DNA from: Antedon mediterranea
Taxonomy: Eukaryota > Animalia > Echinodermata
DNA length: 64,000 nucleotides
Assembly: GCF_964355755.1 (NCBI RefSeq)
Contig: NC_092673.1
Span: 18,845,648 to 18,909,647 of the forward strand
Reading direction: 5' to 3'
A model generated the notes under the pieces. The model saw only the letters and a list, made by a program, of their open reading frames with translations, was not told where the DNA came from and ran no database searches. The stretch's first letter is position 1. Each line of letters begins with the position of its first letter. This document shows positions 23,553 to 61,404 of this stretch, piece by piece. The translations under genes were made by a program, and so were the position numbers.

Positions 23553-26500
23553 ATGGCAGATTCACAAGGTAATGTTCAGATGATTATAAAATTCAAATTA
23601 AAATCAGGCTTCCATTCATAAAATTAATAATATAGAATTCTATTAAGTCTGTTTTATAGTCTTGGTACTAAAGAAGAAATGAGTATTATAAAATAGTTGA
23701 TGATTTAATTGTACAGTTCAAGTACGTTATATACCTGTATCAATAGGAATGTATTATATTGTTAATTCAAATATATTTGATGATAATTGAATTAATTTTG
23801 TAAATAGAAGGAGTAAAAAAATACAAAATTGACTACCAAAGAAATGTCATTCTTAGGTCATTGAATATTAAGGATAACATAATCTTGAAGATCATTGCCA
23901 TCACCATTTTAGCCTAATTTGGTACATTTTTTATTATTTTAATTAATAAAAGAAAATAAAACAAATCTATTTAAATCAGTGCATATAACCTATAATTTGT
24001 CATAGTGACAAACTAAATCTGGTTTTATTTGAGTTACTGAAATGTATACTTTGAAATCTTATTTAATCAGTTGAAAAGGATCCATCTGCTATTACTGCTC
24101 ATGGTACAGATGTTAAGAAAGCATACACTAAGGCATTGGCTGAGGGATCTGTCAAAGTCAATCTTGGAATGCTTAAAGTTATTGGCCAGGAAGGAGTTGG
24201 TAAAACTTCCCTTATCAATGCCTTACTTGGAAAGAAGTAAGTACTATATAAGTAAGTACTATTTAAGTACAGTGAAATGAACATAACAAGTATGTGAGTC
24301 GACTAAAGAATACAAACTAGCCATTATCTTTCATTTATTTCACAGGAGAAGATTTTGAATTTTTTAAATGGAAGAGAGTTAATAACTTCTTTGGCACATA
24401 TATAATATTGATAGTCTGTCTAAAAAAAATAGATAACAAAAAATTCATAATTTCATCCTAAGGGAAGTGCACTCCTCTAGCCCCCACCCCCTTCCACTTG
24501 CTTCAGAGCTGTTTCAATAAACCACTTATTAATTATTACCACTTTTTAAGTGTCACAATTTGAATACTGATATAAATGATTAATTAAATGTCTAAAAAAA
24601 ATAGATATCAACAAGTTCATAATTTCATCTTAACTGTTAAAAGGGGGGAGTGCACACCCTAACGCCCGTATTCTTAAACCGGACTTTAGTCGTAGTTCGA
24701 AGTTCGACTTGGAAAAGTCGTAGTTCGAGCTATTACTTCAAATTCGATTCAAAAACGAAGTAGTCGAAGTTTGCAGTTCGACTTAATGAAGTCGAGCTTT
24801 TAGTCGAGTTGCACACGTCTGGGTAACAAAGGCTATACATTGGCCAATGACAAGAGAATATTGAGGAGCAGACGAAATTTTGCGCATTGATATCACTTTC
24901 CATTTCTTACAACACTTTTTACGCATCAGGACTATATACATGAAAAATAATTGTAATCGTTAATTATTAGAACAATATCAGTATTAATTTAACAGTGAAG
25001 TATATTTGATTAACAACAAATAAAATCTTTAAAATATATTTAGGAACCATGGCGGTACGGTAACTTTTATATTTTCTAGGCCCCCAACAAACTATGATCG
25101 CCACGAACCACGCACTTCATAGCGTGACAAGAAAGCGCTAGGCCCCCTAAACATTCCATCGCATGGTGAATTGCCGCATCTCCCATTGTCGCTATGGCGT
25201 GACGTAGCTCAAGTCGGACTTGCGCGAAAAAAATAATATAATTTGTATACAGTTTTAAATAAAGATGATTTTCATTATTATAATTTATACCAATGTATAT
25301 TTAATTAAGCTAATATAAATATAGATATTTCATTCTTCAATATCTGGCCAATATAACAACTCAATGACTGTTACGTTTTTTATAAACATCGTTTAAAAAC
25401 CATTTAGTCGACCATTTAGTCTGCCCCCTCCAGGACTAAAAAAATCGATCAAAATCCGTCTCGATTTAGTCGAGGTTGGCCTGATTTAGTCGGGGATTTA
25501 GTTGAAGTTCGGTTTATGAATTAAAATGACGTCATTTTTTTAGTTTTAGCTCGAACTACGACTAAAGTCCGGTTTAAGAATACGGGCGCTAGTCCCTCCC
25601 CCTTGTTTATGCACCTGTTTCAATAAACCACTTGTATTAAAGTGTCACAATTTGAATACTGATTTCAAATAATAATAATAATAATATAATAATATTTATT
25701 CGGCAAAAGTTCTTAAAAATTACATTTCATCTTGCCAGGAGCAAGTAATAGGCATGAGCCCAAACAGAAAACTGCTCTTACTCCATCAATGATTTTCACT
25801 TCAGATTTAACAGCAAACATGATGTTACAGATGGAATAGCAGTGATAAGAACTGTAAGCACAACATGGACAGAAGCTTATGAGGATAGTGGTAAACATAA
25901 ATATATTTACATTATTATTATCATTATAAACACTGACAGCATAAGTGAATAAAGATCTCACGGTAAAACAGTATACTACATATTGAAACATAAATTGAAA
26001 ATAGTTTTGGATATTAATTTGCATATTAGCATTAGATTAACCTGAATAATGTACATAGAGACTGATTGTCAACCATCTAATTTTTTAAATTTCATTTCTT
26101 ATGTATAATTTGTTACATTGATTGGTGAATGAACAAAATTGGTGAAATGTTTTAAATATTATAGATATTTATTAATATTTAACTATTAAAAATCTATTGT
26201 CCCTAATTCCCAAAAAATAAAAATTTTGAAAAAAAGCGGGTCATTTTGAAGTACTTTCACCAAAAATTAGTCGAAAAAAAAATCATTTAACTGAAATACA
26301 GACGGTTTTTTGTTCAAAAAATAACTTTGACTTCCAGTCAAAGTTTTTGATCAAAACATATCTCATTATGCAACGCGCTTGTTTGGCTACTCTGTATGCA
26401 TAATCATAAAACTTCCTCGCGATCTGTGTGAAAACACCTTCTCAACCGTGACAAGTTGTAAACAATCCTAATTAGCATCATGCATAATGCATACTCGTGG

Positions 26501-29500
26501 TTTGAAATCTTTGTTTCGCTGGCGACGATTTTCCAGACTAAATGTAATCAAATAAATTTACCTGTTAATTACGTAAACTTGTTGTTTTTGGCTCGAATTT
26601 TCGACTTGAAGTGAATAACTTTAATATTACTTTGATATGGCCAATTTAAATTTAGAATATTTTGATTTGTGTTTCAAGGGACAATACATCTTTAATAAAA
26701 CCAATATGATTATATTTTTCTACAGGTAATCCTTCAAAACAGTATACAAAAATGGTCGCTGATAAACTGAGAGAAATGGTAAGTTCATTTAAATAGTGCC
26801 TAGATGACAATTCTAATACTGCTAAATTATATAAGTCTTAAACCAAACAGCATTGAATGATTAGAATTATGTAGACAATGCTTAATATCTTGTTTTTTTC
26901 TTGTGCCAGGTTGACAAGGAATCTCTAGCAGAAGGTAGGCCTATGGAATTCCTTTAAATTTAGTTTCTTGTCAATAATACTTGAAGATAAGAATATCTAA
27001 GAATTTTAATGTATTAATGTTATGCTGCTGCACAACTTGTTTTAAACATTTGCAGTTCTAAGAGACATAAATTAACGTTTTTATATTAGCTGAGTTTGAG
27101 TAAAGTTTAATTCCCTTGCTGTAGGCTAGTCAATCTAGCATTTTGAGTGAAACAAATTGCAAACAGAGATTTTTTTTTTTTTAATGGTTACATATGATAA
27201 GGTAATTATTTTTTGAGCATCACACCTCTGACACTCATCCCGAAGGTATGCAAATTAGCTTAAATATGCAAATTAGGGTGAAATTACAGGGTTACCATAT
27301 CTTAAAAACTACTAATCGTAGAGAGTTCATTTTTGCACAGTGTGGTTCAGAATATATATATTTATATTTGCTCTAATGAGACATTTTACATAAAAATGTC
27401 CGGAAGTACCAAATTTTGACCCTTGACCCCATTTCTCAATATTTACATAAATATGTGATTAAAATGTCTGTAGAGACTTTATTTTGGACTCAATGACTTG
27501 GATATTGTTTTTCAATACCCACCATAGAACTGTATTATAATTCCTAAAATCACAACTTCGTCACGCACCTCGAAAGTATGCAAATTAGTAGTACAAGTAA
27601 TATTAAATATGCAAATTAGGGAGTGAAATTACAGCGTTGCCATATCTCGAAAACCGCTAATGCTAGAGTGTTGATTTTTTCACTGAAATATTTAAAATGT
27701 ATATATTTATATTTGCTGTAATGAGACATTTTACAAAAAAAATGCCCGGAACTATGACATTTGACCCTCGACCCCATTTCTCAATATTGCATATATAATG
27801 AAAACTAAAATGTCTGTAGAGACTTAGTTTTGCCCTCAAATGACTCGGATACAGGTTTCTAATAGCCAACATAGGAATGTTTAGTAAATCTCAAAATCAC
27901 ACCTGTATCACTCACCTTCAAAGTATGCAAATTATTAGTACAAGTTACATGAAATATGCAAATTAGGGGGTGAAATTACAGGTTCCTATATGTATCGAAA
28001 ACCGCTAAGGTAGAGAGTTGATTTTTTCAAAAACCTGTTCAGAATGTACATATTTATATTTGCTCTAATGAAACATTTTCCGAAAAAATGACCGGAAATA
28101 CAACAATTGACCCTTGACCCTATTTATCAATGTTTGCATACATAATGCGACTAAAATGTCTGTAGATAATTTTTTTGGACTCAAATGACTCGGATACAGT
28201 TTTCCTATTGTCAGCATTAGGACCTCTTTGTAATTCCCAAAATCACATCTTTGTCACATACCTTGAAAGTATGCAAATTATTAGTACAAGTTACATGAAA
28301 TATGCAAATTAGGGGTGAAATTACAGTCTTCCCATATCTCGAAAACCATTAATGCTAGAGAGTTGATTTGAATTCAGAGTTGATTCAGAATGTACATATT
28401 TATATTCGCTGTAATGAAACATTTTATGCAAAAATTGTCTTGATTGAATTATGACATTTGACCCTTGACCCTATTTCTCAATATTTTCATATAATTCAAC
28501 TAAAATATCTGTACAGACTGTTTTGGCCTCAAATGACTCAGATACAGGTTTTCTATAGCCAGCATAGAACTGTAGTAATTCTCAAAATCACACCTTTGTT
28601 ACTTCCCTAGAAAATATGCAAATTAGTAGTACAAGAGGTGAAAGTTGCCATATCTCTATCGGTCATTAGCGTTTTTCGAGATACATAAGGCTGTAATTTG
28701 CATATTTCATATAACTTGTACTAATAATTTGCATACTTTCGAGTTGCTTGACTTTTGGAATTACTAAACGATCCTATACTGGCTATATAAAACCTGTATC
28801 CAAGTCATTTGAGGCCAAAACAAAGTATGTACATACATTTTAGTTGCATTATATGCAAATATTGAGAAATAGGTTCGAGGGTCAAATGTCATACTTTCGA
28901 TAAATTTTTTTTTCAATAATGACCCAGATACAGGTTTTCTATAGCCAGCATAGAACTGTTTAGTAATTCTCAAAATCACACCTCTGTTACTTCCCTTGAA
29001 AGTATGCAAATCAGTAGTACAAGAAAGTTGCCATATCTCTCTCTCTCGGTCATTAGCGTTTTCGAGATACATAAGGCAATTCACTGTAATTTGCATATTT
29101 CATATAGCTTGTACTACTAATTTGCATACTTTCGAGGTGCTTGACTTATACTGGCTATATAAAACCTGTATCCGAGTCATTTTAGGCCAAAACAAAGTCT
29201 GTACATACATTTTAGTTGCATTATATGCAAATATTGAGAAATAATAATAATAATAATACCCTGGATTTATATAGCGCCTAATGTTGTGTAACCTCTAAGC
29301 GCTGTACATAAACTAATACGAAAAAAGGGAATTCCAACCATGCCAAAACGAAGGCGTGATTTTGGGAATTACAAAGCGGTCCTATGCTGACTATAGGAAA
29401 CATGTATCCGAGTTATTTGAGTCCAAAACAAAGTCTCTACAGACATTTTAGTCGCATTATGTATGCAAACATTTATAAATGGGGTCGAGGATCAATTGTT

Positions 29501-32500
29501 GTATTTCCGGTCATTTTTTCGTAAAATGTTTCATTAGAATAAATATAAATATGTACATTCTGAACAAGGTATTGAAAAAATCAACTCTCTAGCCTTAGTG
29601 GTTTTCGATATATAGGAACCTTTAATTTCACCCTCTAATTTGCATATTTCATGTAACTTGTACTAATAATTTGCATACTTTGGAGGTGAGTGATACAGGT
29701 GTGATTTTGAGATCTACTAAACAGTCCTATGTTGGCTATTAGAAACCTGTATCGGAGTCATTTGAGGGCAAAACAAAGTCTCTACAGACATTTTAGTTTC
29801 ATTTATATATGCAATATTGAGAAATGGGGTTGAGGGTCAAATGTCATACTTCCGGTCATTTTTTTGTAAAATGTTTCATTGGAGCAAATAGAAATATGTA
29901 CATTTTGAATACGGCTGTGAAAAAATCAGCTCTCTAGCATTAGTGGTTTTCGAGATATAGGACAACTGTAATTTTTCCCCTTATTTGCATATTTTATTTA
30001 AATTGTACTACTAATTTGCATACTTTCGAGGTGTGTGACAAAGGTGTGATTTTGGGAATTACAAAGTGATCCTATGCTGGCTATTAGGAACCTATGTCTG
30101 GGTCATTTGAGGGCAAAATAAAGTCTCTACAGACATTTTAGTCACATTGTATATGCAAACATTGAGAAATGGGGTCGAAGGTCAAATGTTGTACTTCCGG
30201 TCATTTTTTCGTAAAATGTTTCATTAGAGTAAATATAAATATATACATTTTGAATAGATCAGTGAAAAAATCAACTCTCTCGGACTAGTAGTTTTTGAGA
30301 TATGGTAACCTTGTAATTTCACCCTAATTTGCATATTTAAGCTAATTTGCATATCTTCGGGATGAGTGACAGAGGTGTGATGCTCAAATTTTGATCTCCT
30401 CATCATATATGACCATTTAAAAAAGAAAAATCTCTGTTTGCAATTTGTTTCACTTTGGGCTGTTTTTTTTTGCTAGATTGACTAGCCTACTGGTAAAGTT
30501 CTCGTTTCAGTTTAGCCTTATAATTCCTGTGATTTAATGTTCTGCTCTAATAGACAATTTTGTTTTGTAATAATAAAACTTTCAGTTACTATTATAATTT
30601 GTATTACTGTATTTTGTAACTAGAATAATACCAATTATTTACAAAAATTATAATTTTTCTCATAAGTTATTGACAATGCACAACCATTTAGAATAATCTG
30701 ATATTTTAAAAATGTATTTTCCCAATCTAAAGTAGCTAAAGAAACATAAAAACTCCATTGTGGTTATTTAATCAATTAACCAATCTGTATAACACTTTTA
30801 TAAATCTACTATGACACTGATATTGACTTTAATGATAAAAATAAAATATTGATTACTACTACAAAAATGACAACAACAGTGATGATAATGAATACAACAA
30901 TGATAATGAGATCAATGAAAATGATTAGAATGATAACTGATGAGCAATGATGATAATAATAATGATGATAATATTAATGATGCTATACATTTTAAGTGTT
31001 GAGTGTGACCAAAATAAATATTTCACTGCAGGTACTGAAGCTATTCCATTTGATACAGAACAGCATTTAGATAAAGATGTAATTCAGGATATTGAGGAAA
31101 ATAAGGAGGAAACCTTGAAAGACACGTTTAACATCTGGGATCATGGTGGACCACTGATGTACCATGGTCTACAGCGTGTAAGTTATGATTGTATTTGCTT
31201 TGAATAAAGTCCATAGACATATAGTATTCTTCTATTCTTCAATATAATAACAACATTGATTATTTACACAGTGCTTAAATAAAGGTTGTAAGTCCATAGA
31301 CATATAGTATTCTTCTATTCTTCAATATAATAACAACATTGATTATTTACACAGTGCTTAAATAAAGGTTGTAAGTCCATAGACATTTTATTCTTCTATT
31401 CTTCAATATAATAACAACATTGATTATTTACACAGTGCTTAAATAAAGGTTGTAAGTCCATAGACATTTTATTCTTCTATTCTTCAATATAATAACAACA
31501 TTGATTATTTACACAGTGCTTAAATAAAGGTTGTAAGTCCATAGACATTTTATTCTTCTATTCTTCAGTATAATAACAACATTGATTATTTACACAGTGC
31601 TTAAATAAAGGTTGTAAGTCCATAGACATATAGTATTCTTCTATTCTTCAATATGATAACAACATTGATTATTTACACAGTGCTCAAATAAAGGTTGTAA
31701 GTCCATAGACATTTTATTCTTCTATTCTTCAATATAATAACAACATTGATTATTTACACAGTGCTCAAATAAAGGTTGTAAGTCCATAGACATATAGTAT
31801 TCTTCTATTCTTCAATATAATAACAACATTGATTATTTACACAGTGCTTAAATAAAGGTTGTAAGTCCATAGACATTTCATTCTTCTATTCTTCAATATA
31901 ATAACAACATTGATTATTTACACAGTGCTCAAATAAAGGTTGTAAGTCCTTAGACATTTTATTCTTCTATTCTTCAATATAATAACAACATTGATTATTT
32001 ACACAGTGCTTAAATAAAGGTTGTAAGTCCATAGACATTTTATTCTTCTATTCTTCAATATAATAACAACATTGATTATTTACACAGTGCTTAAATAAAG
32101 GTTGTAAGTCCATAGACATTTTATTCTTCTATTCTTCAATATAATAACAACATTGATTATTTACACAGTGCTCAAATAAAGGTTGTAAGTCCATAGACAT
32201 TTTATTCTTCTATTCTTCAATATAATAACAACATTGATTATTTACACAGTGCTCAAATAAAGGTTGTAAGTCCATAGACATATAGTATTCTTCTATTCTT
32301 CAATATGATAACAACATTGATTATTTACACAGTGCTTAAATAAAGGTTGTAAGTCCATAGACATTTTATTCTTCTATTCTTCAATATGATAACAACATTG
32401 ATTATTTACACAGTGCTCAAATAAAGGTTGTAAGTCCATAGACATATAGTATTCTTCTATTCTTCAATATAATAACAACATTGATTATTTACACAGTGCT

Positions 32501-35500
32501 CAAATAAAGGTTGTAAGTCCATAGACATTTTATTCTTCTATTCTTCAATATAATAACAACATTGATTATTTACACAGTGCTTAAATAAAGGTTGTAAGTC
32601 CATAGACATATAGTATTCTTCTATTCTTCAATATAATAACAACATTGATTATTTACACAGTGCTCAAATAAAGGTTGTAAGTCCATAGACATTTTATTCT
32701 TCTATTCTTCAATATGATAACAACATTGATTATTTACACAGTGCTCAAATAAAGGTTGTAAGTCCATAGACATTTTATTCTTCTATTCTTCAATATAATA
32801 ACAACATTGATTATTTACACAGTGCTCAAATAAAGGTTGTAAGTCCATAGACATATAGTATTCTTCTATTCTTCAATATAATAACAACATTGATTATTTA
32901 CACAGTGCTCAAATAAAGGTTGTAAGTCCATAGACATTTTATTCTTCTATTCTTCAATATAATAACAACATTGATTATTTACACAGTGCTTAAATAAAGG
33001 TTGTAAGTCCATAGACATTTTATTCTTCTATTCTTCAATATGATAACAACATTGATTATTTACACAGTGCTTAAATAAAGGCTGTAAGTCCATAGACATT
33101 TTATTCTTCTATTCTTCAATATAATAACAACATTGATTATTTACACAGTGCTCAAATAAAGGTTGTAAGTCCATAGACATATAGTATTCTTCTATTCTTC
33201 AATATGATAACAACATTGATTATTTACACAGTGCTCAAATAAAGGTTGTCAGTCCATAGACATATAGTATTCTTCTATTCTTCAATATAATAACAACATT
33301 GATTATTTACACAGTGCTCAAATAAAGGTTGTAAGTCCATAGACATTTTATTCTTCTATTCTTCAATATAATAACAACATTGATTATTTACACAGTGCTT
33401 AAAAACTTATTTTACAATTTGTTAAAAATATTTATTTAATACACTATTCATTTTTAATAGAGAACAATTGCACTTGACAAAAAGATCTCAGTGTTTGAGT
33501 ATTGAAGTTTTATCTGAGAAACTTCCTTTTAGGGACCAATTACAGAGGGAAATAATATTTGTACATATTTCTTTTTTCCTAGATGTTCATGACATCGGAA
33601 GCCCTTTATATCGTAGTGTTTGATCTCAGTGTGAACCTTCAGGATCGTGCTATCTTCAGTGCTTCAAATGGAGTAAGTATTTAAAGACAATGTAAGGTAA
33701 AGGTATTTGTGATTAAAAAATACCTACCAGATGAGTGAGACGATTAAGAAAAACATATAATAATTATTTTATTTTAATCAAATAAAGATATAATGTGTAG
33801 TGTCTTTTTTTTCCAGGTTAAACGTATACATCATTGTACCAATCTCCAGTTCATATTATCTTACATCCAGACAGTTTATTCTCATAGTCGTATTGTGAGA
33901 AAAAACAAAGAAAAGGGAGTTCACGAACCAACTATCCTTATTGTGGGTACACATAAGGGTAAGCTTGGTAAGACTAAAGAAGAACAAAATGATGAGGTAA
34001 TACTTCCATTATTAAAATTAATCAATCAATTTCTGTTCTAAAAGCTAATATAAAGAAACTATGACTAGAATACTGTATCGAATACATTTTTATCAGAAAT
34101 TCTCATATGAATGTATTTAATACAGTAGTCTCAGGCCCGTAGCCAGAATGCATCAGAGGGGGGTTTTCTTGACACCAAGTATTTTGCGTAGTAGGCTGGG
34201 GGCCAGGGGGCCGCCAAGGGCCCCCGGTGGGGGTCCAGGGGGCGAAGTCCCCTGGAAGCTTTGGCTCTCAGAGCAATTTCGGTTGTTTTAATAAGCTTAC
34301 AGAGACATTTTTTACCTACTAAAATCTGAGTTATGCAGAGAAATTATATAGTACAGTATTATGGAAGTTAGTAGTACTGATCATGAAATACAGCTTTATT
34401 GTTGCAAAAAAGTATATTATATTAGGCCCTTAAATAATTTCTTATCCTATAAACATAAAAAACAAATAGTACCGTATATTTCGGTGTACAAGTCGCACCT
34501 GTGTATAAGACGCACCCATAACGGAGACTGAAATATTAGTATTTTTTATGTAGTCGATGCATAAATAAGACGCACTTATTTCTAGGCCGAAATTTAAACA
34601 TTTTACAATCAAAACAATGGTATTTTAATAATAAAACAACGATATTTGAGACATATTTATTAGAATCAAATGATATAATTTTGTTTGATTGCCTTTATTA
34701 CATCGTAATCAGTCTCTACTTCAACTACTACTACTACTTAAACTGAACATTCAATGAAAAGGGAAATCCCCATATTGTTTCAGTTACGATGCACTGTGTG
34801 GGTAGGGCTAGCCTATGTCATTTAAGTAACTTTAATTTCATATTATTTAAATATATACCTTCTTATTGTGTGTATGACCATTATAAAATCAATCCAAATG
34901 ATGTTCAGTTTTTTGGGCTGATAATGAACCAGGAATATCATGTTGGGTAGGCCTATATGAAAATCTTTCCTATTTCCATGCATGCATTACATTACAGCAA
35001 TATGAGGAGAAAAGAGCACTAACCATGTGCTGCCTGGTGGCCAGCACTGTTGGCCATATACACTATGAGATTAGGGGAAGCTACTTAACACAATAACAAC
35101 ACACTCTTTTAGATATCGCTTGACATACGAACTATTGCCTACATGATTATAAAATTATGTGATTGTTGACATAGAGATGTAATAAAAATAAACCACCGTG
35201 ATCAAGGGAAATAGTTATTGTGTAATTAAAATGTGACACCACCGTAATTAATGGACTCTTCCATAAATGTGTTGCGCTGTTATGCTGCATGCTGCTAGTA
35301 CACACCCGCGAGTTCAGAGAGTATTACTAGGCCTGGGTAGAATATCTAATGCGTACTGTAATATTAATTAATACAGTCGAGGATGACAATTTACCTTAAC
35401 TAAAAATTCAATAAACTTGTTACCACACTGTGGTTAGACAGGAGTGAGTAACTAGCTAGGCCTACATTGCAGAGTAGTAGGCCTACACTATTTTTAATTA

Positions 35501-38500
35501 ATTTAAGTATTAGTAGGTAATTAAATTAATTAGGGTAACATTTAGAGGTCAAATTTACGTGTCAAAAGTGCGTCTTATACACCGAAATATACGGTAGGCC
35601 TACGTACACGTACCAATTTAACTCAACACCATTTTTATTCAAGTTTACACAGTGAAATTCTTTGGTTTAATGAAAAATATTTCCAGGAAAAAAATAAAAA
35701 TCCCCAAAAAGATTGAACTGAACTGAACGTGATCTTATGCGTTCCGAAAAGCCCGGCCGAAGCACGCGATTGGTCAGTCCATTTTTCTGTCATATTTATA
35801 ACCATCATCTCTCAACAATCTCTCGATCTCACGCTCAGCAGTGACTTTGACATCGGACAATCTGTATATTCGATCGATTTAAACATAGTCAATAGAAGTA
35901 AAATGACCAAAAAATCTGCTATAATTGATAATTAATTGAACGATTTTGGAAGTGGGGCCTTTTTTTTTCAAGGGGGTTCGCTGGTAAAAGGGGGGTTCAC
36001 GCAAAAGGGGGGTTCGCCCGAACCCCAAAAAACCCCCCTGGCTACGGGCCTGAGTCTTGTAGTCTGTGAAGTATTTATATATCATTTAAAAGAACATGTT
36101 TTAATTTTTTTACATTGTTTACAACCAGACAATGAAGGCCTTTAAACAGATTCGAGATGCACTTAAACATAAAGTGTATGAAAAACATGTGTATCGCCAA
36201 TATTTTGCCGTTGAAAACAGCCAAGAAACTACGGATAAGAACTTTAGCAATCTCAAACAAGTCATTGATGACCTTATGACTGCTTTAGAGAAAGAAGTTC
36301 CTTTAAAGTGGATGCGTTTTCGATGTGATCTACATGATCTAAGGAGAAAAAAACATTTTTCTTTGTGTCCAGTTGAAGAGGTAAATTTAATTGGCATCAT
36401 TCCTCAGTGTTTTGTTTTCAGAATAGAAATATGTTGGAAATAATAGTATTTAAAAAAGTATAAACAAAAGACTCTACCTACTATTATATATAACTACAGT
36501 ACTATCTGGAAAAATCATGAGAGCAATTACATCGGCCTAGTATTTTTTATGGAATATTTGCATTGCAACACTGACAATTACATTCTGTGAGAAAAATTGC
36601 AGTTACGTTTCCCCCATCCTGAGAGAGACGTTTTCCTTCGGATCCAAAGTTATGCAGTACATGTTATCAAGTAAATTTCAAAACATTTCAGGCTGTAAAG
36701 GACAAAACTAATGTTGTAAATGTATACCTACCTTTGGTTTCATATTTTTGATATTTTATTTGTATCTGAATAGTAAACAATTTTTTCTTTAGCTCAAAAT
36801 GCTGGCAAGTAAGAATGGTATTGCAGATGAAAAACAACAATCCTTTCTTCTTAACTTTTTGTACGATCTTGGTGAAATTGTTTACAGGCCTGACAACAAA
36901 TTATTGAAAGATAAAGCGGTGTTAGATCCGATGCAGCTGGTTGAAATTGTTACTGCTTTTGTAACGGTCATTCCACCAGAATTTCCAGTAAGTAGTCTCA
37001 TGAAAATGTTAATGCAGTGTTTTTTTAGGACATTTGAATTCCTATAGGTGCTGTAGTATCAAAAGCAATGTCTGACAGTTTCCTTAGTTTAACATTGAGG
37101 GGTATATTGTATATTAGTATATTGTAAACCATGCCATTGTATCTACAAGTCTTTATACATGTGCATCCCTTTAAATTCTAAATTGTTTGATAACTTAATA
37201 AACACAAAATTCTAAGTATGGATAATTGGTGGTGTTTTTTAGTCGGCCACGTATATCGATGCGTTTGATAAACTTGACAAGGGCATACTGGAAGAAAAGT
37301 TGTTGCGAAGATTATGGAAAAAGCGTAAAGTTGACGACGGAAAGAATTTTGAGTTTCTTGTAGCACTGATGATTCAATTAGGTTTTATATGTGAGAGGAA
37401 GACAACCAGCAGCCAAGATGTGGCAAGTACATTTACAGTAGGTTTTGTTGAGTTATCTTTTCTAACAAGTTTTGTTCATGCATGCAAGCTTATTTGGCTA
37501 AGCTAAGATTTTTTGATACATAATTGAGGAAATTTTATATAAAATTTCAAGTTATTTGTAGGGTTATGACATATTTTGATTAAACTTCTGAAAATGTACA
37601 GGAAATGGTATTTAGTTTTCTTATTAAAAGAAATCTAAATGGCATTTTTACAAATTAACAATTTCAGGGATCTGTTGGAAAGCGATCATTCTTTGTGCCA
37701 CTACGCCTTGCTTTCAAGACATCAAGTGAAGTGAAACCAGTGCCTGATAGATTGCAAGATATCAGTATCTATTACGACTTTAAGGGATATCTGCCAGATG
37801 TATTGTTTCCATACATGATTATTGATTTCATCAACAAATTTCAAAAGAAAGGAGTTGACCCAATAATGTCATATAATCATGCTGAACTTTACTTCGACCA
37901 AGATCATTTTGTGACTTTATCTCTTGTCAATGTTGTCACTAATGAAGATGAGCGAAAGTTCTTATTAAAGGTACTGTGTCATACAATCTCCTGTGAATTT
38001 TCAATAAATATTACCAAATTATTTTGAATTGATAGAAGTTGATTAGTCAAATACAAACAATGCTGAAACCCTGCAAATATCATTTAGTTTGTAACACTTA
38101 TTACAATTGCCTGTATTATCCTAATCTTTCTTTTACTTATTTTTGTTGTTAAATATTAAGTCAGAATTTACTCTACATGTGCATAATAATTCAAATGCAG
38201 ATATCAAAACATCAACTACTGTACTTTCTTTTTTTCCAGGTGACTATTAAAAGAATAAATGCTTTTAATGAAACTAATGAGGAACCTTCATCTGAAGCAT
38301 GTAGAGAGGTATGTTATCATATTATTTGATAAACCATCTATCTAAGATTGTTTATAGATAATAATTTTTACTAAATATTTATAATTAAAGTTTTAAAATT
38401 ATTTTGGGGCAGTGTAATCAAAATAGTGGTTAACAATTATTTTCATTAAATAAAATTTCTTTTGAACAACCAAAAATAGTATAAGCGAACTTACAGTACG

Positions 38501-39619: not shown

Positions 39620-39669
39620 ACGTCCAAGATGATAGAGAGTTACTGCAATCTGTCAATATTCTTAAATAA
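39620..39669 (+). CDS. Candidate alternative terminal exon for Roc-COR module 1
   Basis: Acceptor tttactttttcacag; phase-1 read DVQDDRELLQSVNILK* with AATAAA overlapping the stop; gives a 680-aa Roc-COR-only product. Confidence 0.5.
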
Positions 39670-40146
39670 AAGGCTTGACCTATAATCTGATTGGCAAACA
39701 CTAGACTTTATTGTTTTCATAATCTAGCAATCATTATTATTCAGATTTAAAAAATTAACAATTCAGTTATCATATTAAAATAATATTATTGTTATTATCA
39801 ACAACTAAAATGGCCACTAATCCCATAGTTTTACAATTCGTTTTGCAATGCTGTTTATTTCTTGAAATGTTGTGTAGAATATTGGTTATATTTTGTTTTA
39901 AAGACCTAGTACTTTTAGATCATTGTACCTTACTTTCTTCCACCTTCTTAGACTGTACACAAGGTCGTGATTATTAAAATGAAATTATTTGTACCATTCC
40001 ACGAATATAAAAACATTCACTATTTGTTTTATATAACAATAAAGTAGATTCATGCATTTCATTAAATTGTCATCTTAATAGGATTGTCCACTGAGTAGGG
40101 CTTGGCTGTAGTGGTAAAACATATATTGCCCTTTGTTTTGCCATTG

Positions 40147-43250: not shown

Positions 43251-43329
43251 CTAGTAGAATCACAGGATGTAATCACACCCCACTAAAAAAAGTACAAATG
43301 ATCAATGTTATTATAGGATTTAACTTGAT

Positions 43330-46300: not shown

Positions 46301-47025
46301 TAGCCGGAAATTGTTCTCCAGACGCGATTTCGTGTCTGTACAAAACTTTGGTGCTACCTATTCTAGAGTATGGTTTGCCGGCGTGGGGCCCCAGAAATGG
46401 AGGACACATAAAACGCCTCGAACAGGTTCAGCGACGGGCCTCTAGATGTATTCTGGGGCCCCACTGCAGACCTATATCATACGACGAACGTTTAATAACT
46501 TTGGGTTGGTTATCCTTACGTGATAGACGTTTAATGATTTTAATTTCCTTTATATTTCGTTGTTTTTATAATGTAACTTTTTGTAGTACTGTAAATAACA
46601 ATATCCATATCAATCAACGCCATCCTGAATTACTCACATTTTTCCACCCTTTTGCACGTACCGATACTTTAAAATATTCGTCTATCAACAATTTTCCTGT
46701 TATATGGTCATCACTACCCTCCATAATCAAAGATCAAGCAGTTACTCTTCCTTTGAAAAATTTCCTGTCGAAATTGAAAAAATATCTGCTTGATCAACGC
46801 TAAATTTATTTTAATTGTATAGGTGTATTTTAAATTGTGTAACACAGTAATACAAATTAATTAAATTTTTTATATATTCTGTATATTTTTTATTCATTTT
46901 TAACTTGTATTAAGTTGTATGTTACAGGGGTTGCGGACACAAATGTGTTATGGCGCTCTGTTGCTGTCGCAACCCCTGGACCGCTTGTTGTCGAATAAAG
47001 AAATGAAAAAATGAAATGAAATGAA
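43330..47025 (+). mobile_element. Near-full-length CR1/L2-group non-LTR retrotransposon, APE + RT, two frameshifts
   Basis: ORFs 43618-44622, 44607-45200 and 45187-46803. APE motifs NCRSIRNK, CLTETWL, GDFN, IDLVF, SDHH; RT motifs FLDMSKAFD, GIPQGSCLGP, FADD. 3' stem-loop caggggttgcg..cgcaacccctg and (gaaat)n tail. The 5' boundary is approximate. Confidence 0.93.
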
Positions 47026-47290: not shown

Positions 47291-47323
47291 CTGATGATGT
47301 TGGGACATCCGGTTCAAATCAAG
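47291..47323 (+). CDS. 33-nt phase 1-1 linker exon (ADDVGTSGSNQ)
   Basis: tttgttacag|ctgatg...aatcaag|gtatgt; the frame matches both the 39307 donor and the DED exon. Confidence 0.7.
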
Positions 47324-47478: not shown

Positions 47479-48015
47479 AAATCTCAGAGTATGAGTTCCG
47501 GCAACTGTTAACTGATACAGCAGCATGGTTTGATGGACTTGGATATCTCAAAATATTGAAAGTTTTATACAAAGACCATCTTTCAAAATCGAATGTAGAG
47601 GTGGAAAGAGCTAGAAGTGTTTGGGATCTGCTACAGGATTTAAGAGCCTCAGGAAGTTTGAGACCATCAAACCTTACTATTCTATATGACACAATAACAG
47701 TAACCAAGCAATTTGGCTTCAAGTCAAACGTTGAGAATCAACCACCAGAAGATATTAAGAAACATGTAGTATCAATGTTGACACCTTTCAGACAGAAGGT
47801 TTATCAACTTGGAGTAGAACTTACGAAGGATGAAGTATCAACACTTGCCAGGTTATTTAACAATGTATTGGTAAAGACATATCAAGACAGCTGGAGTATG
47901 ATTATGGACTTTGAACATAGAGGGATCATTGATAAGGATTTCACAAAGATGGTTGAGTTTCTTAGAGTTTCAGAACAAAATGGAATGACAAAAGCTAGGA
48001 AGATTTTCATTGATG
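47479..48015 (+). CDS. Phase 1-1 exon encoding tandem death effector domain-like folds (DED-DED)
   Basis: 179 open codons: EYEFRQLL..LKILKVLYKDHL..VERARSVWDLLQDLRASGSLRPSNLTILYDTI, then TPFRQKVYQLGVELTKDEVSTLARLF..SMIMDFEHRGII. The pattern resembles caspase-8/cFLIP tandem DEDs. Confidence 0.75.
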
Positions 48016-51190: not shown

Positions 51191-54100
51191 ATGAGAATAT
51201 TCCATCTGCTATTACTGCTCATGGTACAGATGTTCAGGAAGTGTACACTAAGGCATTGACTGAGGGATCTGTCAAAATCAATCTTGGAATGCTTAAAGTG
51301 ATTGGGCTGGAAGGAGTAGGTAAAACATGCCTCATAAATGCTTGTCTTGGAAAGAAGTAAGTACTAGTTAAAGGACAGTGAAATTAACTATGAAATATGC
51401 AAGTTAACTATTAAAAAAATAATGATTCATTTTAAAAACCAATTCCCTAATATCGCAGCCTTAAAAGTAACTCAAGTTCACTAATGGTTTCAAATTTATT
51501 TATTTTTTTAATTTATTTATTTATTCGGTATATAAATATATATTACAAAACGACAGTCAAGGACTGAAATGAAATGTATTACAAATGACTAAAAATTAGT
51601 TAAAATTGCTATAAAAATAGAAACATCTTAATAAAATTAGATATCGTACCATACAATTAAAAACATACATGAATAAAAAACCTTAAAACATTCACTTATT
51701 ACATATCTAAAAAAGAGCTAGTGGTGCCTATTAATTATATCCACCATGGTGGGAACTGGAGACGACCTAAGTCTGCTGGTTTTACAATGAGGTACTTCTA
51801 GAAAGCGGTTGACTCTGAGAGACCGAGCTGGCTTATGAAGAGGGGGAAGTATTTCTCTAAACAGCTCGGATTTTCACTTCAAATTTAACTCCAAGCATAA
51901 TGTTTACAGCACTTAAAAGTGACCCAAGTTCTTTATTGTTTTCAAATGATTTTCACTTCAGATTTAATCGCAACCATGAAGTTACAGATGGAATAGCAGT
52001 GATAAGAACTGTAAGCACAACATGGAAAGAGGATACAGAGGATAGTGGTAAACATGAATAAATTTAGCTTTTCATCCCTCTTGCAGTGAATTATGATAAA
52101 CTATTGAAAGATAATTGGAGATCAATACCACTACTGACATATAGTAGTATATTATTGGATACTATGTTAATGTTGATATGAACAGTCATGTAACTGACTG
52201 ATTTCTGCATGATTTTTTTTTCACATATTAAATATTGTTACTCCTGATCTTTTCTGATGCAAAACATTTGATGGTTTGCTTATTTCAGGATTGTATTTCA
52301 TGCAATTTACATATATCAATTAGTTTGAAGTGATAACCTAATAATCAAATATTATTCACTTAAATCAACACAAGGACCTACAGAAATAAATAACTTTGTT
52401 TTGTTATTTTCAGGTAATCCCTCAAAACAGTTTACAAAATTTGTCGCTGACAAAATGAGAACAATGAAAACTGAAAACGTATGTCAACAACATTTTATTT
52501 AAAACATTAAAATAATACAAAAGCCATTTATACTTCTTTTATTTTGGGAAAGATATCAATCTAGTCCACTGGACTTACTAACGTAAGTTCAGTGAACTAG
52601 ATTGATATCTTTCCACACAAAAAATTACACTACCTGGATAAATAAGAATATTCATATCCGCATTTATACTATTATTACTAGCCTAAACTGAGGGGTTTGT
52701 TTTCTTAATGTAAATCAATGATTCTTTAACAAGCAAATCAAAAATAATGTGCTTTGGAAAGTAAATGTATTTTCTATTTAGGTAAATATAAAGAATATTT
52801 AAATTAATATAGCTCATCGACGATGAGCTATGCTCGACGCGATTATGAGATCATGTTCCGAATATGAGCACTGTTTCAATATTTTAATAGTATGATTTAT
52901 AAAGAATATTTAACTATTTATAAGGTTTGTTTTCATTATATGAGTTAGGTTGTCCAGAAACCACCTAAAGATGATAATGATTCTAAAAATATTGAGGGCC
53001 ATGATGATATTAATGACAACCACACCAATATTGAAGACAACTACAACAAAGATGATGATCATGACAACCACAGCAAAGATGATGATCATGACAACCACAG
53101 CAAAGATGATGATCATGACAACCACAGCAAAGATGATGATTATGACAACCACAGCAAAGATGATGATCATGACAAACAGAGCAGTCATGGTAATGATTAG
53201 TTTGTGTAACTTTTAAAATTCTGTTTTTTTAAACAATAGTATTAAGAATTATGTAATATTATATTGATGAATCTTTTTAATGACTGTAACATAACATGTG
53301 TAATACTGAGTTTTGATCCCATTCACAATATAGTGGAGTTATATAACTGTACCTTGATCGTGCCGTTTTACAACCATTGAATTGGAAGGTAATACTGTAT
53401 CTGCTGTAATAGAAATGTAATTATTTGCAGTTCTAAATTAATTTGTTTTTCTAGTATTTTCCAACTTGACTAAATTTATTTGTATTTATATGATTAAATT
53501 AAATTTTGAGTAAAATGCTATACAATTTGTAAAGATAATGACTACAACAGAGATAATGATAATGACTAAAACAATGTGGTGATGATACAATGACTATAAT
53601 AATTATGTATACAAAAACAATGATGAGAATGATTGTTATGAGTATAACATTGTTGGCAATTACATTGATGATGATGACCATGACGATGATGTTAATTATG
53701 ACAAAAACTACAACATAGATGATAAGAGTGATGAAAACTATAACATTGATGATAATAGTGATAAAAACTAAAACATTAATGATATTAGTGATGAAAACTA
53801 TAACATGGATAATAATAGTGATGAAAACTATAACATTGATGATATTAGTGATGAAAACTATAACATTGATGATAATAGTGATGAAAACTATAACATTGAT
53901 GATATTAGTGATGAAAACTATAACATTGATGATAATAGTGATGAAAACTATAACATTGATGATAATAGTGATGAAAACTATAACATTGATGATATTAGTG
54001 ATGAAAACTATAACATTGATGATATTAGTGATGAAAACTATAACATTGATGATAATGAACAATAACAATGATGATAATGATGAAAACTATGATAATCAGA

Positions 54101-57100
54101 TTACAACAATGTTGCTTTTTGCATGTGGAGTTTTACAACAAAAATCTGTTTCAGCTACAGGTACTGACATTGCTGACATTGATACAAAACAGCAGTTAGA
54201 TAAAGATGTAATACAGTATATTGAGGACAATAAGGAGGAAACCTTTAAAGACACGTTTAACATCTGGGATCACGGTGGACAACTGATATATCATGGTATA
54301 CATCGCGTAAGTTATGATGTGTTTGTCTATACATGGTATTTATCAACATAATAGTAGCATTATTATTGATATGCAGACATTGCTCAAATAGTTTCTGCAC
54401 AAAGGCTCTGTTAGAAGTTTCAAATAGTTCACTACAAAAACATTTTAACTCTACAGTAGGTTGGCCAGTTTGAGTATGAGAAAAATATAACCTATGGAAA
54501 TACAAATAAACAGTACATTTTAGTGAAAATCTTGCTAGTACTTACTTGTCTTCTCATCTGCCATTTGGAAGGTACATGACCTCCTCCACACTTTTCTATT
54601 TAGTGTTTCTTCTTTTAGTTCAGATTATGTATTTATATTGTTTAATCTATATAGCATAACTTTCTTTTTCCTCCTTCTTCTTTTACCATCATATCTTTTC
54701 TATTAACAATTTTCAATAGTCCTCCTTCCCTCCTTTCAGATCCATACAAACTTTGAAGGTGACATACATGATTTTAGTTTTCCTATTATTTTTTCCCCCT
54801 TATGTATTCTATCCATTGTTATTATTATTATTATTATTAATCGTCGTCGTCATCATCAATGTCATCATCAATATTATTATCAATATCAATATCATCATTA
54901 TCTTCATCATTATCATCATCATTATCATCATTATTATTATTAATATTAATATTATTAATATTATTATTAATATTATCCGTTGACAATTCATTATATACAG
55001 TATTTACAGTAAATCCTATTAATCCATAATTTCTGTTTTTAATGTGTACTGATTCTAGTTTTCTTAGGTGAGTTATTGTATATTTCTGCAAAAATATTGT
55101 TTTAAATGAATTTGTACAAGAGAAGAAGTATTTGGTAAAAAAATAAATTGTATTAAAACATTTTATATAAAGTTCTTTAGTTATAGATTTGTCTAAATAT
55201 CAGAAAGTAGTGTATAACCAGTATAATGCTTGCTTTTTGCAGATGTTCATGACATTGGAAGCACTTTATATTGTGGTGTTCGATCTCCGTGTGAACCTTG
55301 AGGATCCTGCTATTTTCATTGATGCAAATGGAGTAAGTATTTGTAGGCCATGTAAAGTAATGTTTTGGAGGGACCTTAGTAGCAGTTAACCCACTATTCT
55401 AAACTGGAGGAGTTACCCTCTTTAAAGATGGTTGAAATATAAGTATTGTAGTTATGTCCATGGGCTGGGAGCAGTAACCCCCTGCAACCTACATTTTTGG
55501 TATTTTTATGTACCTAAATATCCGGTGAACTAAAAAATATATGTTAACATCAAATATCCTCATTCCCGAGATGGGTTTTTAACAGATTTTTAAAAGCGAT
55601 TTAATTTCAGATTTTTTACCAATTTTGGGGTAAGGGGGTAATACAAATAGCCATAAGTACAGTTTTCCTTGAACATTCATTCTTGGTATCAATGTATAGA
55701 GTATTGTCTGTTCTACAATTTGATATAAAATATGTGGTAATTAAATAATTAATGACATTACAAATAATTAAATATGCCAATATTATTGTTTAAAAATTGG
55801 CTAAAGTGATTCATATATGATAGGTATACACATTCTGATTCATATAACCATTTTTAGGTACATGTATATACAGTAGCTATAAATATGTACACAACTTAAC
55901 AAAACAATCAGTTTCATTATTTTCCGTACATTTTTGGGGTAGGGTTAATAACAGTAGTGATAAGTATAATTTTCCTTGATGAAATCTTTACAAATAGATA
56001 TTAGTATGTAGAGTAAGTCTGTCTGTTTTACATTTTGATTTTACATTTAGTGTAATTGGATAATTAACGACCTCACATTAGGTCAAAAGGTCACATTTAG
56101 AAAAAAATAGGTACTGTATCTACAAACCTGTAAATGTATAATTAAAATACCTAAATTAATCTTCATCTGAATCACTATCTTCACCGTAAGAAAGTTCACT
56201 TGCATCAGAATTACGCTCCTCATCATCTTCCTGAAATTTTTTATTATCAAGTTTATCAAGAATATCAACTAGGTTTTGTGGTAAAATTTTGTTAGATGTC
56301 CATTCTGATCCATTATCTGTTGCAGTCCACCTCTAAATAATTTGTATTCCAGATAACTGAATGGCATGATGCAGCAAAATAAAGAAGATGTCACTGTCAG
56401 GACTCCTAATTCTAGCATATTTAAAGCCCCTCTCTCTTCCATAAAAGCAATATAGTATCACTCTTGAGTCTGTCTCTTCTTGACTGGATTGAAGGTTGAT
56501 CCGCTCTGTTGTTGATATGGTACTATATACCGTCTGATATTATCTGATGTGCTTTTCCATCACAAATAAAAATCACTTCTCTATCTACTAGCTTTGTTGC
56601 AAATGAGTTGAATAAGCTTCAAGTTTAATTGTGGCTAAAATAATTAAATTGTATGATAGTTTTTTTATAATATATATAAATAGAATTTTTTTTTTTTCAG
56701 GATGAACGTAAACATCATTGGACCAATCTCCAATTCATATTATCTTACATCCTGTCAGTTTATTCTCATAGTCGTGATATAAGAAAAAACAAAGAAAAGA
56801 GAGTTCACGAACCAACTATCCTTATTGTGGGTACACATAAGGCTGAGCTTGGTGGAACTGAAGAAGAACAAAATGCTAAGGTAATACTGTTTCTATTTTT
56901 ACGTTTACTGAAATTAGCCACAACCAAGAATACATTGCAGGTCTATATTAGAAACTGAGTACTGGAGTAGTGTATCAATTAATTTGATTACTTAAGTCTA
57001 TCCTGCAATTAATAAAAGTGGTAGTCCAGAGTTACAAAAAAGTTTTTGAATATTACTTAGAATAAAGGACATTAATTGACCCATGTTATGATATAAATAT

Positions 57101-60096
57101 ATATTTTTTGTTATTAGGCAAAATCAAAATTTGAAAAGCTTAAACATGCACTTGGAGAGAAACTGAAAGTTCATGTGTATAACACCTATTTTGCCATCGA
57201 AAACAGTAAAGAAACAACAGATGAGAGCTTTAGCAAACTCAAAAAGGTTATTGATGAGCTTATGGAAACTTTAGAAAGGCCTGTTCCTTTGAAGTGGATG
57301 CGTTTTCGATGTGACATACATAAACTAAGGAGAGAAAAACACTTTTCTTTGTGTCGTGTTGAAGAGGTAAATTAAATTTAATGTTTTGTTTTTGGTAGTA
57401 AATAATAGAATCTAAAAAAGCATAAACAAAATAATTTTCCCACTATTAAAAAACAATTAATGTTAGTAAATATAATAATATTGATTAGTAATATGATCCT
57501 AATCATGTTAGTATGGTTTCTTATCTGAGCCAGACCACTAAAAAACCTAGTAATATTTATGGAATATTCATTGCTATGTTGCCATTCTGTGAGAAAGAAA
57601 CGCTGTATAATCCCCCTTGGCTATGTGAGAGTGGCATTTTCCTTCAGATCCAACATTATGCAGTAAATGACAAAAAATGAACTTTTCTATATGGTAATTG
57701 TACATCAAAATATTTCGTGCTGTAAAGCGTCGTTTCACAAAGTATGGCCCGCAGCCCGAAACAGAATGTTTCAGCATGTAAGATCCTTTATTTTAACATA
57801 AACTTTGCGGAATACTACTGTAAATGACAGAAATAATGTTATAAATGACGTATACCTACCTATGATTTTATTTTTTTTCTTTAGCTCAAAAAGCTAGCAA
57901 GTAAGAATGGTATTGCAGATGAAAAACAACAATCAACCCTTCTTAACTTCCTGTATGATCTTGGTGAAATTGTTTACAGGCCTGACAACAAATTATTAGA
58001 AGATAAAGCGGTGTTAGATCCGATGCGGCTTGTTAAAATTGTTACTGCATTTGTAACAGTCATTAAACAAGAAGATCCAGTAAGTAGGCTCATAAAAATA
58101 TTAATTCAGTGTTCCTTGGGGAAATAATAGGCACATGTGAATTCCTATATTAGTCATGTATCAAATGCAATATCTGCAAGTTACCTTACACAGTAGTTTA
58201 AATTTGAGTGGTATTTATTGTATATATATGTAATTTAAATATATTTGTTTGTTTTTTTTAGCCGGCCATGGATATTGATGCCTTTGCTAATCTTGACAAG
58301 GGCATACTGGAGGAAGACTTGTTGCGAGAATTATGGAAAGAGCATAAAGTTGACGAAGGACAGAATTTTAAGTTTCTTGTAGCACTGATGATCCAATTAG
58401 GTTTCATTTGTGAGAGAAAGACAACCAGCAGCCAAGATGTGGCAAGTACATCTACAGTAGGTTTTGTTAAGTTTCCTTTTCTAACATGTTATGTTTTGCA
58501 TGAAGCTAATGTGAAAAAAACGATTTTTTATATGATACATAATTGGTAAAATTTTACATACAATTTCTAATTATTTGTAGCGTTATGACATATTTTGATT
58601 AAACTTTCTGCTGAAAGATGTTTTTAACATGTACATGAAATTAGTTTTCTTAAAAGAAATTTAAATGGCATTTTTACAAATCAACAATTTCAGGAATCTG
58701 TTGGAAAGCAATCATTTTTTGTGCCACTACGGCTTGCTTTCAAGACATCAAGTGAAGTGAAAGCAGTGCCTGATGAATTTCCAGCTATCAGTATCTATTA
58801 CGACTTTAAGGGATATCTGCCAGATGTATTGTTTCCATATATGATTATTGATTTCCTCAACAAATTTCAAAAGAAAGACGTTGACCCAATACTGTCATAT
58901 AATCATGCTGAACTTTACTTCGACCAAGATCATCATCTGACCTTATCTCTTGTCAAATTTGTGACTACGGAGGATGAAAGAAAGTTCTTGTTAAAGGTAC
59001 TGTATCATATAATTTGTTGTGAATAAGTCATAATCTAAACATAAACTCAAATTCAAATATCAAAACATCACTTTTCTTCTTTTTTTCAGGTGACTATTAA
59101 AAGAACAAATGCTCCTAATGAAGCGAGTAATGAAGAACCCTCTTCTGAAGCATGTAAAGAGGTTTGTTATCATTTCATATATCAGTTTGAAGAAGTATAT
59201 GATTTTGTATAGATATTTTTGTTGATATCTATCTTGTAATATGACATGTTTTAAATTTGAGGTATCATTTTCCTAATTTTTTGTCATTGTATTTGACTGG
59301 TGTTTTCAATAATAAAAAACAGCTGACTATATTGCTAAGATGAAAATCTACTTATAGAATTAAACTTGATGTGGAACATACTTTTTCATTTTAATTTGCT
59401 TCAGTTAATATTATTAATTAAATATGAATGATTATTCACAATTGCCTTATATAGCATTACATCTTTAAAAAATCAATGATATAATCTTCATATGATATAA
59501 ATTTTAAACACCTTAAAGTACAGTTGTCAAAACTCAAACGTAATTCATTTTTAATAGCTGCCAGTCAATAGCATGCCTACAAACTCTGAATTGTTATTAT
59601 TTTAAGACTAAAGTATGATTATGAACTTGCAATTGAAACTTTAAATTTGGTAAGATTTTATAACATACAGTACATGGTGAACTATGTACAATGTTTGTAT
59701 AATAGTGATACTTTTTTGTTTTACTTTTCCCTTTATAACTATATTGTATTGTAAATGTTTACTGAACACAACATTTTAAGAGTGTATGCTGCTGATTCAA
59801 AGTTGCTACATTGTGTTATATTGGTCAATTACAGTTAACTGTTTGTCCTTGGAAATCAACATTCAATTTGTATCTTTAGGTTTTGTTAACAATCCAGAAG
59901 TCAATTGAACCTTCTAAAGATGGTGGTAGAAGAGGGATTCAATATGAGAGATGCATACTTTGTGATGTATGTAGTGATACATCAGGAAAGAAGCACATTC
60001 AAAATCTTGATGACTTCCAGTACGAGAAATTGACATGCACCAAAACTGGCAAGTCTGTTACGATGGATGTTAAACGTTACAAGCAGCTATTTGTAG
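51191..60096 (+). CDS. Roc-COR module 2, 13 coding exons, 735 codons, phase 1 at both ends
   Basis: Exons 51191-51356, 51962-52047, 52414-52478, 52949-53189, 54161-54306 (alt acceptor 54155), 55243-55332, 56701-56880, 57118-57366, 57885-58079, 58262-58456, 58694-58996, 59090-59161, 59880-60096. Intron positions match module 1 and there are no stops. Motifs GLEGVGKTC, WDHGGQ, VGTHKA. Confidence 0.88.
51497..51868 (-). mobile_element. 3' fragment of an L2-group LINE
   Basis: Minus strand ELFREILPPLHKPARSLRVNRFLEVPHCKTSRLRSSPVPTMVDIIN, then AT-rich UTR and (aata)n tail. Confidence 0.65.
53715..54056. repeat. Intronic 30-bp minisatellite, ~11 copies
   Basis: Unit gatgaaaactataacattgatgata(a/t)tagt. 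Confidence 0.92.
54824..54976. repeat. (ATT/ATC)n low-complexity microsatellite
   Basis: Mixed trinucleotide runs. Confidence 0.9.
55377..56620 (-). mobile_element. Deleted Academ-like transposon with XPG/PIN-type nuclease remnant
   Basis: Minus strand 56340-56520 reads NLQSSQEETDSRVILYCFYGRERGFKYARIRSPDSDIFFILLHH, followed by an acidic C-terminus ending DSDSDED* near 56157 and repeated subterminal blocks. Boundaries are approximate. Confidence 0.6.
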
Positions 60097-60177
60097 GTAA
60101 GAGTAATAACATAATCATAATCGTGTCGAGCATAGCTCATCACCGAAAGTTACATATTTTTTAGTTGTATGAAAAAA

Positions 60178-60998: not shown

Positions 60999-61185
60999 TT
61001 TCCAAAGGTAGTTTAGCTTTTCAATTTTTAGTACCGATCTTATCCAATTTAAATTTGTTTTAAGTTTTATTTCTATTGAAAGAGTAAGTGATTATTTTAA
61101 GATAAAACAAGAACTACACAATCATGACATTTCACAAACTAACAAAAGCTATGACATTTTAAAAAACATTTTTGTTTTATTTCAG

Positions 61186-61404
61186 AGAACCGGTGGAAAG
61201 TTACAACAGTGTTTAGTTTTCTAATTGGAGTTTTTGCTGTCTTGATAAATATACTTGATGGACCAGCAAGAATGGCAACTTGCATTAGTGTTCTTGTATT
61301 AATTCTTGTTGGATTCTTTTGTCTACATCATCAATTGTCCAAGTCCTGTACTCAGGAAGGTTATAAATCAATGGATGTTAAACGATACAAGAGACTATTT
61401 GGAG
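61186..61404 (+). CDS. Phase 1-1 exon with two hydrophobic segments plus a duplicated COR tail
   Basis: ttttgttttatttcag| ENRWKVTTVFSFLIGVFAVLINILDGPARMATCISVLVLILVGFFCLHHQLSKSCTQEGYKSMDVKRYKRLFG |gtaaaa; if unspliced it stops at 61433. Confidence 0.7.

Follow-up and report, generated by a model that had tools for sequence, protein, structure and literature searches.

Two neighbouring Roc-COR units with a tandem-DED exon and a predicted membrane hairpin in the feather star Antedon mediterranea

Described Roco proteins and the Antedon locus

LRRK2, LRRK1 and the Roco protein of Chlorobium tepidum (CtRoco) share a Roc domain followed by a COR domain. The same order occurs twice on the forward strand of a 64,000-nucleotide stretch of Antedon mediterranea (contig NC_092673.1, positions 18,845,648 to 18,909,647), here called the window, which is AT-rich animal DNA with a GC content of 32.5%. 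The two Roc-COR units (unit 1, 24071-39307; unit 2, 51191-60096) are separated by a linker exon and a tandem-DED exon, and unit 2 is followed by an exon encoding a predicted membrane hairpin. Compared with LRRK2, LRRK1 and CtRoco, the units have no LRR, kinase or WD40 domain, are combined with DED effectors and the predicted hairpin, and lack the aspartate of the G4 motif. The reading put forward here, with a probability of roughly 0.55, is that of two neighbouring paralogs of an expanded, kinase-less Roco family of feather stars, which likely signal through DEDs.

DEDs nucleate filaments, as in caspase-8 and cFLIP. The tandem DED fold of these proteins is shared with the window, where there is no caspase domain. 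DAPK1 and the Roco proteins of Trichoplax adhaerens also combine Roc-COR with a death-fold domain, and Trichoplax, described as having at least 17 Roco genes with CARD or death domains, shows a lineage-specific expansion (PMC6337361, PMC4104024). In the window, however, the death fold is a tandem DED and there is no kinase. Three Trichoplax proteins have additional Ras-like domains, not two Roc-CORs, as they are described in these accounts (PMC6337361, PMC4104024). An expanded Roco family diversified by exon shuffling is also described for the LRR-ROCO proteins of brown algae, which are proposed to be immune receptors; single LRR exons are shuffled there, whereas whole phase-1 modules are shuffled in the window, which has no sensor repeat (PMC11378527). 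Bacterial AP-GTPase-COR proteins are described as bearing varied effectors in conflict systems (PMC8195603). The NTPase of the window is Roc, in contrast to that of the NLR (NACHT) receptors, and only the DED exon is shared with the Antedon NACHT proteins P0001 and P0003. Atlas clusters contain Roc together with Death or CARD in molluscs and sponges.

Among the best 150 of 12,242 matches to a family profile, 130 had Roc and COR-A, and a DED-like domain was also present in 15. Two Roc-CORs were found in three of these 150 (P0105, P0106 of Branchiostoma belcheri, and P0155 of Hondaea fermentalgiana). With P0009 of A. mediterranea the predicted doubles number four, and each of them may be a merger of neighbouring genes. 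The architecture had been annotated as one not known from characterised proteins, and no characterised case was found; among predicted proteins a double Roc-COR recurs. A literature search that covered few subscription journals listed no publication on Roc-COR/DED genes of crinoids or on two Roc-CORs in a single chain.

Roc-COR units, DED exon, hairpin exon and family

Both units are intact, in line with the two complete Roc-COR modules of the initial annotation. Each has 13 exons with matching intron positions, and 514 of 659 residues (78%) are identical between them. Pfam COR-A on single exons gave E values of 2.1e-7 for unit 1 and 3e-8 for unit 2, both slightly below the cut-off; P0020 (XP_071948759.1), the ortholog of the unit-2 COR and hairpin, reaches 50.9 bits against a cut-off of 35.3, and paralogs exceed the Pfam cut-off for Roc. 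No LRR or kinase was matched by Pfam in the 15 exon peptides scanned or in P0020, and the other exons align to Roc-COR. Among solved structures, the best relatives of a profile built from 14 family members were M. barkeri Roco2, CtRoco and LRRK2. The folded paralog P0002 (XP_071948801.1; mean pLDDT 62) matched LRRK2, LRRK1 and CtRoco, COR included, with E values of 3e-14 to 1e-12. By analogy with CtRoco and LRRK2, the units would bind and hydrolyse GTP and dimerise through COR in a nucleotide-dependent manner.

The motifs G1, G2, G3 and G5 (or G5-like) are present in both units. In the two units, as in 15 of 15 A. mediterranea family modules, glycine or alanine replaces the G4 aspartate, which reads guanine. 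The aspartate is retained in three of four Anneissia proteins and in the first Roc of P0009. The G4-G5 part is described as variable among Roco proteins (PMC6337361). The family-wide loss is a testable oddity, and these Roc domains may use another nucleotide. A census of G4 over 150 profile matches was discarded, the loose pattern having also caught other motifs. The unit-2 Roc also contains an acidic exon (52949-53189), an Asp/His-rich insertion with 27-bp repeats that vary in copy number in P0009 and P0014; unit 1 has a 25-nt exon instead.

The tandem-DED exon was correctly recognised in the initial annotation. It scores 38.2 bits with Pfam DED (cut-off 35.9) over two stretches, and the top Foldseek matches of its structure model (pLDDT 90.2) are the tandem DEDs of caspase-8 and cFLIP over the full length (best 5l08, E 2.8e-4, TM 0.73). 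The exon shares 45% identity with a caspase-8-like protein of Anneissia and about 21% with the DEDs of human caspase-8. By analogy with these proteins, the window DED pair may assemble filaments and recruit caspase-8. The same exon type is found in NACHT and Roc-COR proteins of Antedon at 66-79% identity (66-73% for the NACHT proteins P0001 and P0003), so that two different NTPase switches, one NLR-like and one Roco, share one death-effector output module. This agrees with the phase-1 exon shuffling and the likely cell-death or immune role proposed earlier.

The linker exon is, as previously noted, without ATG, and the interval 39308-47290 upstream of it contains a 2.8-kb satellite and a long interspersed nuclear element (LINE). 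The exon matches P0018 and P0012 at 9 of 10 residues. In P0018 it stands directly after COR (0 of 500 shuffles as good), and in P0009 and P0014 it lies a few residues beyond COR. Judged from these models, COR-linker-DED is the normal order of the family, which supports the splice 39307>47291 proposed in the initial annotation. This splice had been considered the riskiest; its exon order occurs in paralog models (P0018), and it is 48015>51191 that is less supported.

The hairpin exon shows two peaks of hydrophobicity, each reaching 2.4 (Kyte-Doolittle, 19-mer). It had been taken as the end of the protein, which is not upheld: position 61404 is a phase-1 donor with a score of 7.3, inside the range of internal donors (5.9-11.1), and P0020, 96% identical in this exon, runs about 220 residues further into a DED-like pair. 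The 88-bp satellite, too, lies downstream of both units. The hairpin exon is likely internal, and the full product, fused or not, likely extends past the window. The segment 61344-61404 copies the last residues of the last COR exon and its phase-1 donor; an origin of the hairpin exon within or from a duplicated COR-end exon is suggested. The intron before it contains a tRNA-like box on the reverse strand (60180-60250), possibly a short interspersed nuclear element.

The closest proteins are uncharacterised RefSeq models of A. mediterranea, followed by those of Anneissia japonica. The family set consists of the 15 A. mediterranea Roc-COR models found (P0002 and P0009-P0022), which are automated predictions; 13 of them are likely on one chromosome. 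They are built from the same modules as the window, namely Roc-COR (65-99% identity in COR), linker, DED and hairpin, and apparently represent a hitherto undescribed expansion of Roco proteins that lack a kinase and are coupled to tandem DEDs. A DED pair lies within 10 residues of the end in eight models. Two Roc-CORs occur in one, P0009 (XP_071947615.1), a predicted double that ends in a hydrophobic segment and whose modules differ in subfamily, with 29% identity. In none of the 15 does a DED behind COR continue in frame into a second Roc, and none has the layout Roc-COR - DED - Roc-COR. Some family models of A. mediterranea (P0042, P0049, P0021 and P0064) join Roc-COR to extra domains (TAZ/KIX + DED, ZU5 + DED, kinase + Death, ankyrin + DED), which represents either wide module shuffling or merged models.

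The COR tree (21 rows) places both units in a young clade of nine members (support 99/96), without resolving them as a sister pair. P0020, a model of its own that has no Roc-COR ahead of it, groups with unit 2 (100/100), whereas unit 1 is without a close partner or ortholog (best 84% in COR). Unit 2 has a mosaic ancestry: its exon 1 matches the second Roc of P0009 at 93% identity, exons 3-5 match P0014 at 91-95%, and exons 7-13 together with the hairpin exon match P0020 at 96-100%. The mosaic points to frequent unequal exchange in the array. Modelling of P0020 residues 110-499 as copies of one protein scored 0.00, gave no answer and weighs neither way.

Table. Coordinates of the exons, domains and repeats at the Roc-COR locus (window positions)
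Feature	Position	Strand	Remarks
Start-codon exon, unit 1	23531..23568	+	ATG 23553; in-frame stops upstream; phase-1 donor
Roc, unit 1	24071..36380	+	8 exons; G4 without Asp
Roc exons 1-4, unit 1	24071-24236, 25805-25890, 26726-26778, 26910-26934	+	
Roc exons 5-8, unit 1	31032-31177, 33583-33672, 33817-33996, 36129-36380	+	
COR, unit 1	36793..39307	+	COR starts in preceding exon; phase-1 donor 39307
COR exons, unit 1	36793-36987, 37243-37437, 37668-37970, 38240-38308, 39091-39307	+	
Candidate alternative last exon, unit 1	39620..39669	+	Phase-1 acceptor; 16 codons; TAA; AATAAA 39665; 680-aa product
Remnant of unit-2-type Roc exon 1	40116..40452	+	Intron end and first 29 nt; 88% to 50930-51219
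88-bp satellite	40452..43262	.	Same family as 61530-64000; consensus differs at 1/88 sites
LINE ORF2 (endonuclease + reverse transcriptase)	43513..46803	+	Three frame-shifted pieces
Linker exon	47291..47323	+	Phase 1-1; usual family exon downstream of COR
Tandem-DED exon	47479..48015	+	Phase 1-1; alternatively terminal via read-through to stop 48111-48113, ATTAAA 48117
Roc, unit 2	51191..57366	+	8 exons; first in-frame Met 51289; G4 without Asp
COR, unit 2	57885..60096	+	5 exons; per exon 96-100% identical to A. mediterranea P0020
Predicted two-helix membrane hairpin exon	61186..61404	+	Ends in copy of COR-end motif and phase-1 donor; likely not last
Second 88-bp satellite array	61530..64000	.	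Likely intronic; further exons expected beyond window from P0020

Two neighbouring genes or one

A gene model rebuilt from the splice sites runs from ATG 23553 to donor 61404 in 30 exons, with 4987 nt or 1662 stop-free codons, and reproduces the exon phases and the uninterrupted codons of the initial annotation. All boundaries are AG/GT, the splice sites are intact and no exon has a stop or frameshift. The open frame is nevertheless weak evidence of one protein, because every module ends in phase 1. Four other module orders (unit 1-hairpin; unit 1-unit 2; unit 1-DED-hairpin; unit 1-linker-unit 2) were tried and were all stop-free too. Tandem copies of a phase-1 modular gene always look fusable, in-frame joining being automatic, and with this shared phase unequal crossing-over reshuffles the modules freely.

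According to the two-gene reading, gene A most likely extends from ATG 23553 through Roc, COR, linker and tandem DED to the stop at 48113 (886 aa), or alternatively to an early end at exon 39620 (680 aa). Gene B would comprise Roc, COR and membrane hairpin, with a likely DED-like domain beyond the window as in P0020. The boundaries of both genes are putative. Each paralog would be a nucleotide-gated switch that clusters its DED pair and recruits caspase-8-like partners, through GTP cycling and monomer/dimer switching mediated by COR, as described for CtRoco and LRRK2 (PMC6337361). The hairpin would hold some members on the membrane with both flanks cytosolic, and the role would be in immunity or cell death.

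The separation of the two genes is argued for by the DED exon. Its donor 48015 scores 5.0, below all 24 internal training donors, and read-through past it gives a product of unit 1, linker and DED that has the commonest family layout. The exon type is terminal in P0004/P0030 (two isoforms of one gene), which runs past the same position. Two genes are also favoured by the separateness of the model P0020, by the stop-bearing acceptors ahead of the linker, by the other stop-free module orders and by the place of the two units in the COR tree. Several findings weigh the other way. The DED exon type is spliced onward in three of four carrier genes (P0001, P0002 and P0003, as opposed to P0004), and donor 60096, which the ortholog model P0020 does use, likewise scores 5.0. 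After the DED exon only two acceptors score above 7 (50957 and 51191). Little of 48016-51190 is free of repeats, and that part is poor in CpG; no start exon like 23531-23568 was found upstream of unit 2 (39308-51190). Exon 1 of unit 2 has its 93% match in an internal exon of P0009, where it follows a COR. P0020 itself is without the first half of Roc, so that either its annotation is incomplete or its locus is different.

Unit 2 could begin at its first in-frame Met, where P0013 and P0016 start. The 17 chance ATG-donor pairs listed in 39308-51190 weigh neither for nor against a second start. The start exon of unit 1 matches, in another frame, the run-on tail of P0017 at 15 of 17 residues; P0017 continues, out of frame, into the start exon of a neighbour and that neighbour's Roc exon 1.

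The single protein of the initial annotation is joinable in frame but unproven, and is judged slightly less likely than tandem paralogs, frame continuity not discriminating between them. It would come from one gene whose transcript, made in substantial amount, encodes about 1850-1900 aa in the order Roc-COR - tandem DED - Roc-COR - hairpin - (DED-like). A promoter-less unit 2 would be spliced to the sequence upstream of it, and the tethered CORs would act as a pseudo-dimer gating the DED pair between them. The intactness of all 30 exons in one frame fits this, as does the failure to find a homolog of the start exon ahead of unit 2, and a remnant of a unit-2-type exon 1 lies only about 1 kb past the COR-1 donor. 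Each junction has a precedent (COR-linker in P0018; COR-DED and DED-Roc in P0002; COR-hairpin and hairpin-DED in P0020; COR-Roc in P0009), and double Roc-COR models occur among the top profile matches. On the other hand, these doubles are predictions, maybe of merged neighbours, P0009 is the only double in the family, and no relative of 1979-5000 aa scored among 2614 candidates in what was a weak search. Two unobserved splices are needed, one of them spanning 8 kb in which two decoy acceptors, an AATAAA and a LINE on the sense strand have to be passed over. These decoys, 39620 and 40353, are phase-1 acceptors that precede the linker; their scores of 5.5 (at the lower edge of the training values) and 7.2 compare with 7.8 at the linker, and 40353, in the cut Roc exon 1 copy, leads to a stop after 10 codons (40384). 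The initial annotation mentions neither these acceptors nor the read-through stop of the DED exon. Exon 39620 was also likened to the post-DED segment of P0002, but 65 of 500 shuffles did equally well and the resemblance lacks significance.

Transcript data bear on this in part. Five sequencing runs cover the stretch, none recorded as RNA, and X2-X4 span introns evenly and behave as DNA. Run X1 has spliced contigs, and two of its nine listed joints fall on modelled introns (36380>36793 and 36987>37243); these contigs are mostly 85-99% alike and thus likely paralog transcripts. The splice 48015>51191 is not among the contig joints listed (15 of 98 in one table, none GT..AG, and nine in X1). The splice 39307>47291 lies outside both stretches compared, and its absence among the nine X1 joints and 6 of 90 loose ends carries no weight. 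The claim of one reading frame stands for the exons, which join stop-free, but is unconfirmed for a transcript, neither fusion joint being among those listed. A 723-nt X1 contig over 48046-48834 (33 differences) was considered as a paralog 3' untranslated region and left unused; intronic contigs of depth 5-7 also occur.

A quite improbable explanation is that the array is partly silent debris, an intermediate copy having been deleted between 40381 and the satellite. The linker and the DED exon would then be orphans, and either unit 2 or the DED exon would have lost its expression in this genome. The cut Roc exon 1 copy (40353) adjoins the satellite that elsewhere follows a hairpin exon. The origin of unit 2 from three paralog types and a dN/dS between the units of only 0.57 (523 codons, equal-length exon pairs) point in the same direction. 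Debris is, however, at odds with 30 exons free of stops and frameshifts, with intact splice sites, and with the near identity of unit-2 exons 7-13 and the hairpin exon to an annotated A. mediterranea gene.

If the fusion were true, it would be a natural covalent Roc-COR pair, a single-chain Roco dimer anchored by a hairpin. It would then bear on whether the dimer is the working form of Roco GTPases or has to dissociate; dimerisation as against monomer/dimer cycling is described as debated (PMC6337361). The phase-1 array would also let feather stars build death or immune switches combinatorially from Roc-COR, DED and hairpin modules.

Repeats and mobile elements

Two related non-autonomous DNA elements (34132-36052 and 48837-49877) have terminal inverted repeats that start with CAGGCCCGTAGCCAG, together with target duplications of 5 bp. 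In run X2 a DNA contig passes over the second element (joint 48834>49919), indicating an empty site in an allele or paralog. This element is flanked by 18-bp repeats coding for Ser/Gly/Ala (48793-48829 and 49883-49959), which by eye resemble the post-linker segment of P0014 and are possibly a decayed exon. An intron of unit 1 contains a large inverted repeat (27146-30454) with 1.1-kb arms of 88% identity, built of 345-bp tandem units. Minus-strand open reading frames at 50291-50917, 9865-10143 and 1641-1928 resemble, by eye, fragments of retroelement ORF2. Further satellites are found at 1-522 (63 bp), 2330-7707 (59 bp), 14671-15552 (89 bp), 19006-19419 (63 bp) and 31207-33403 (81 bp).

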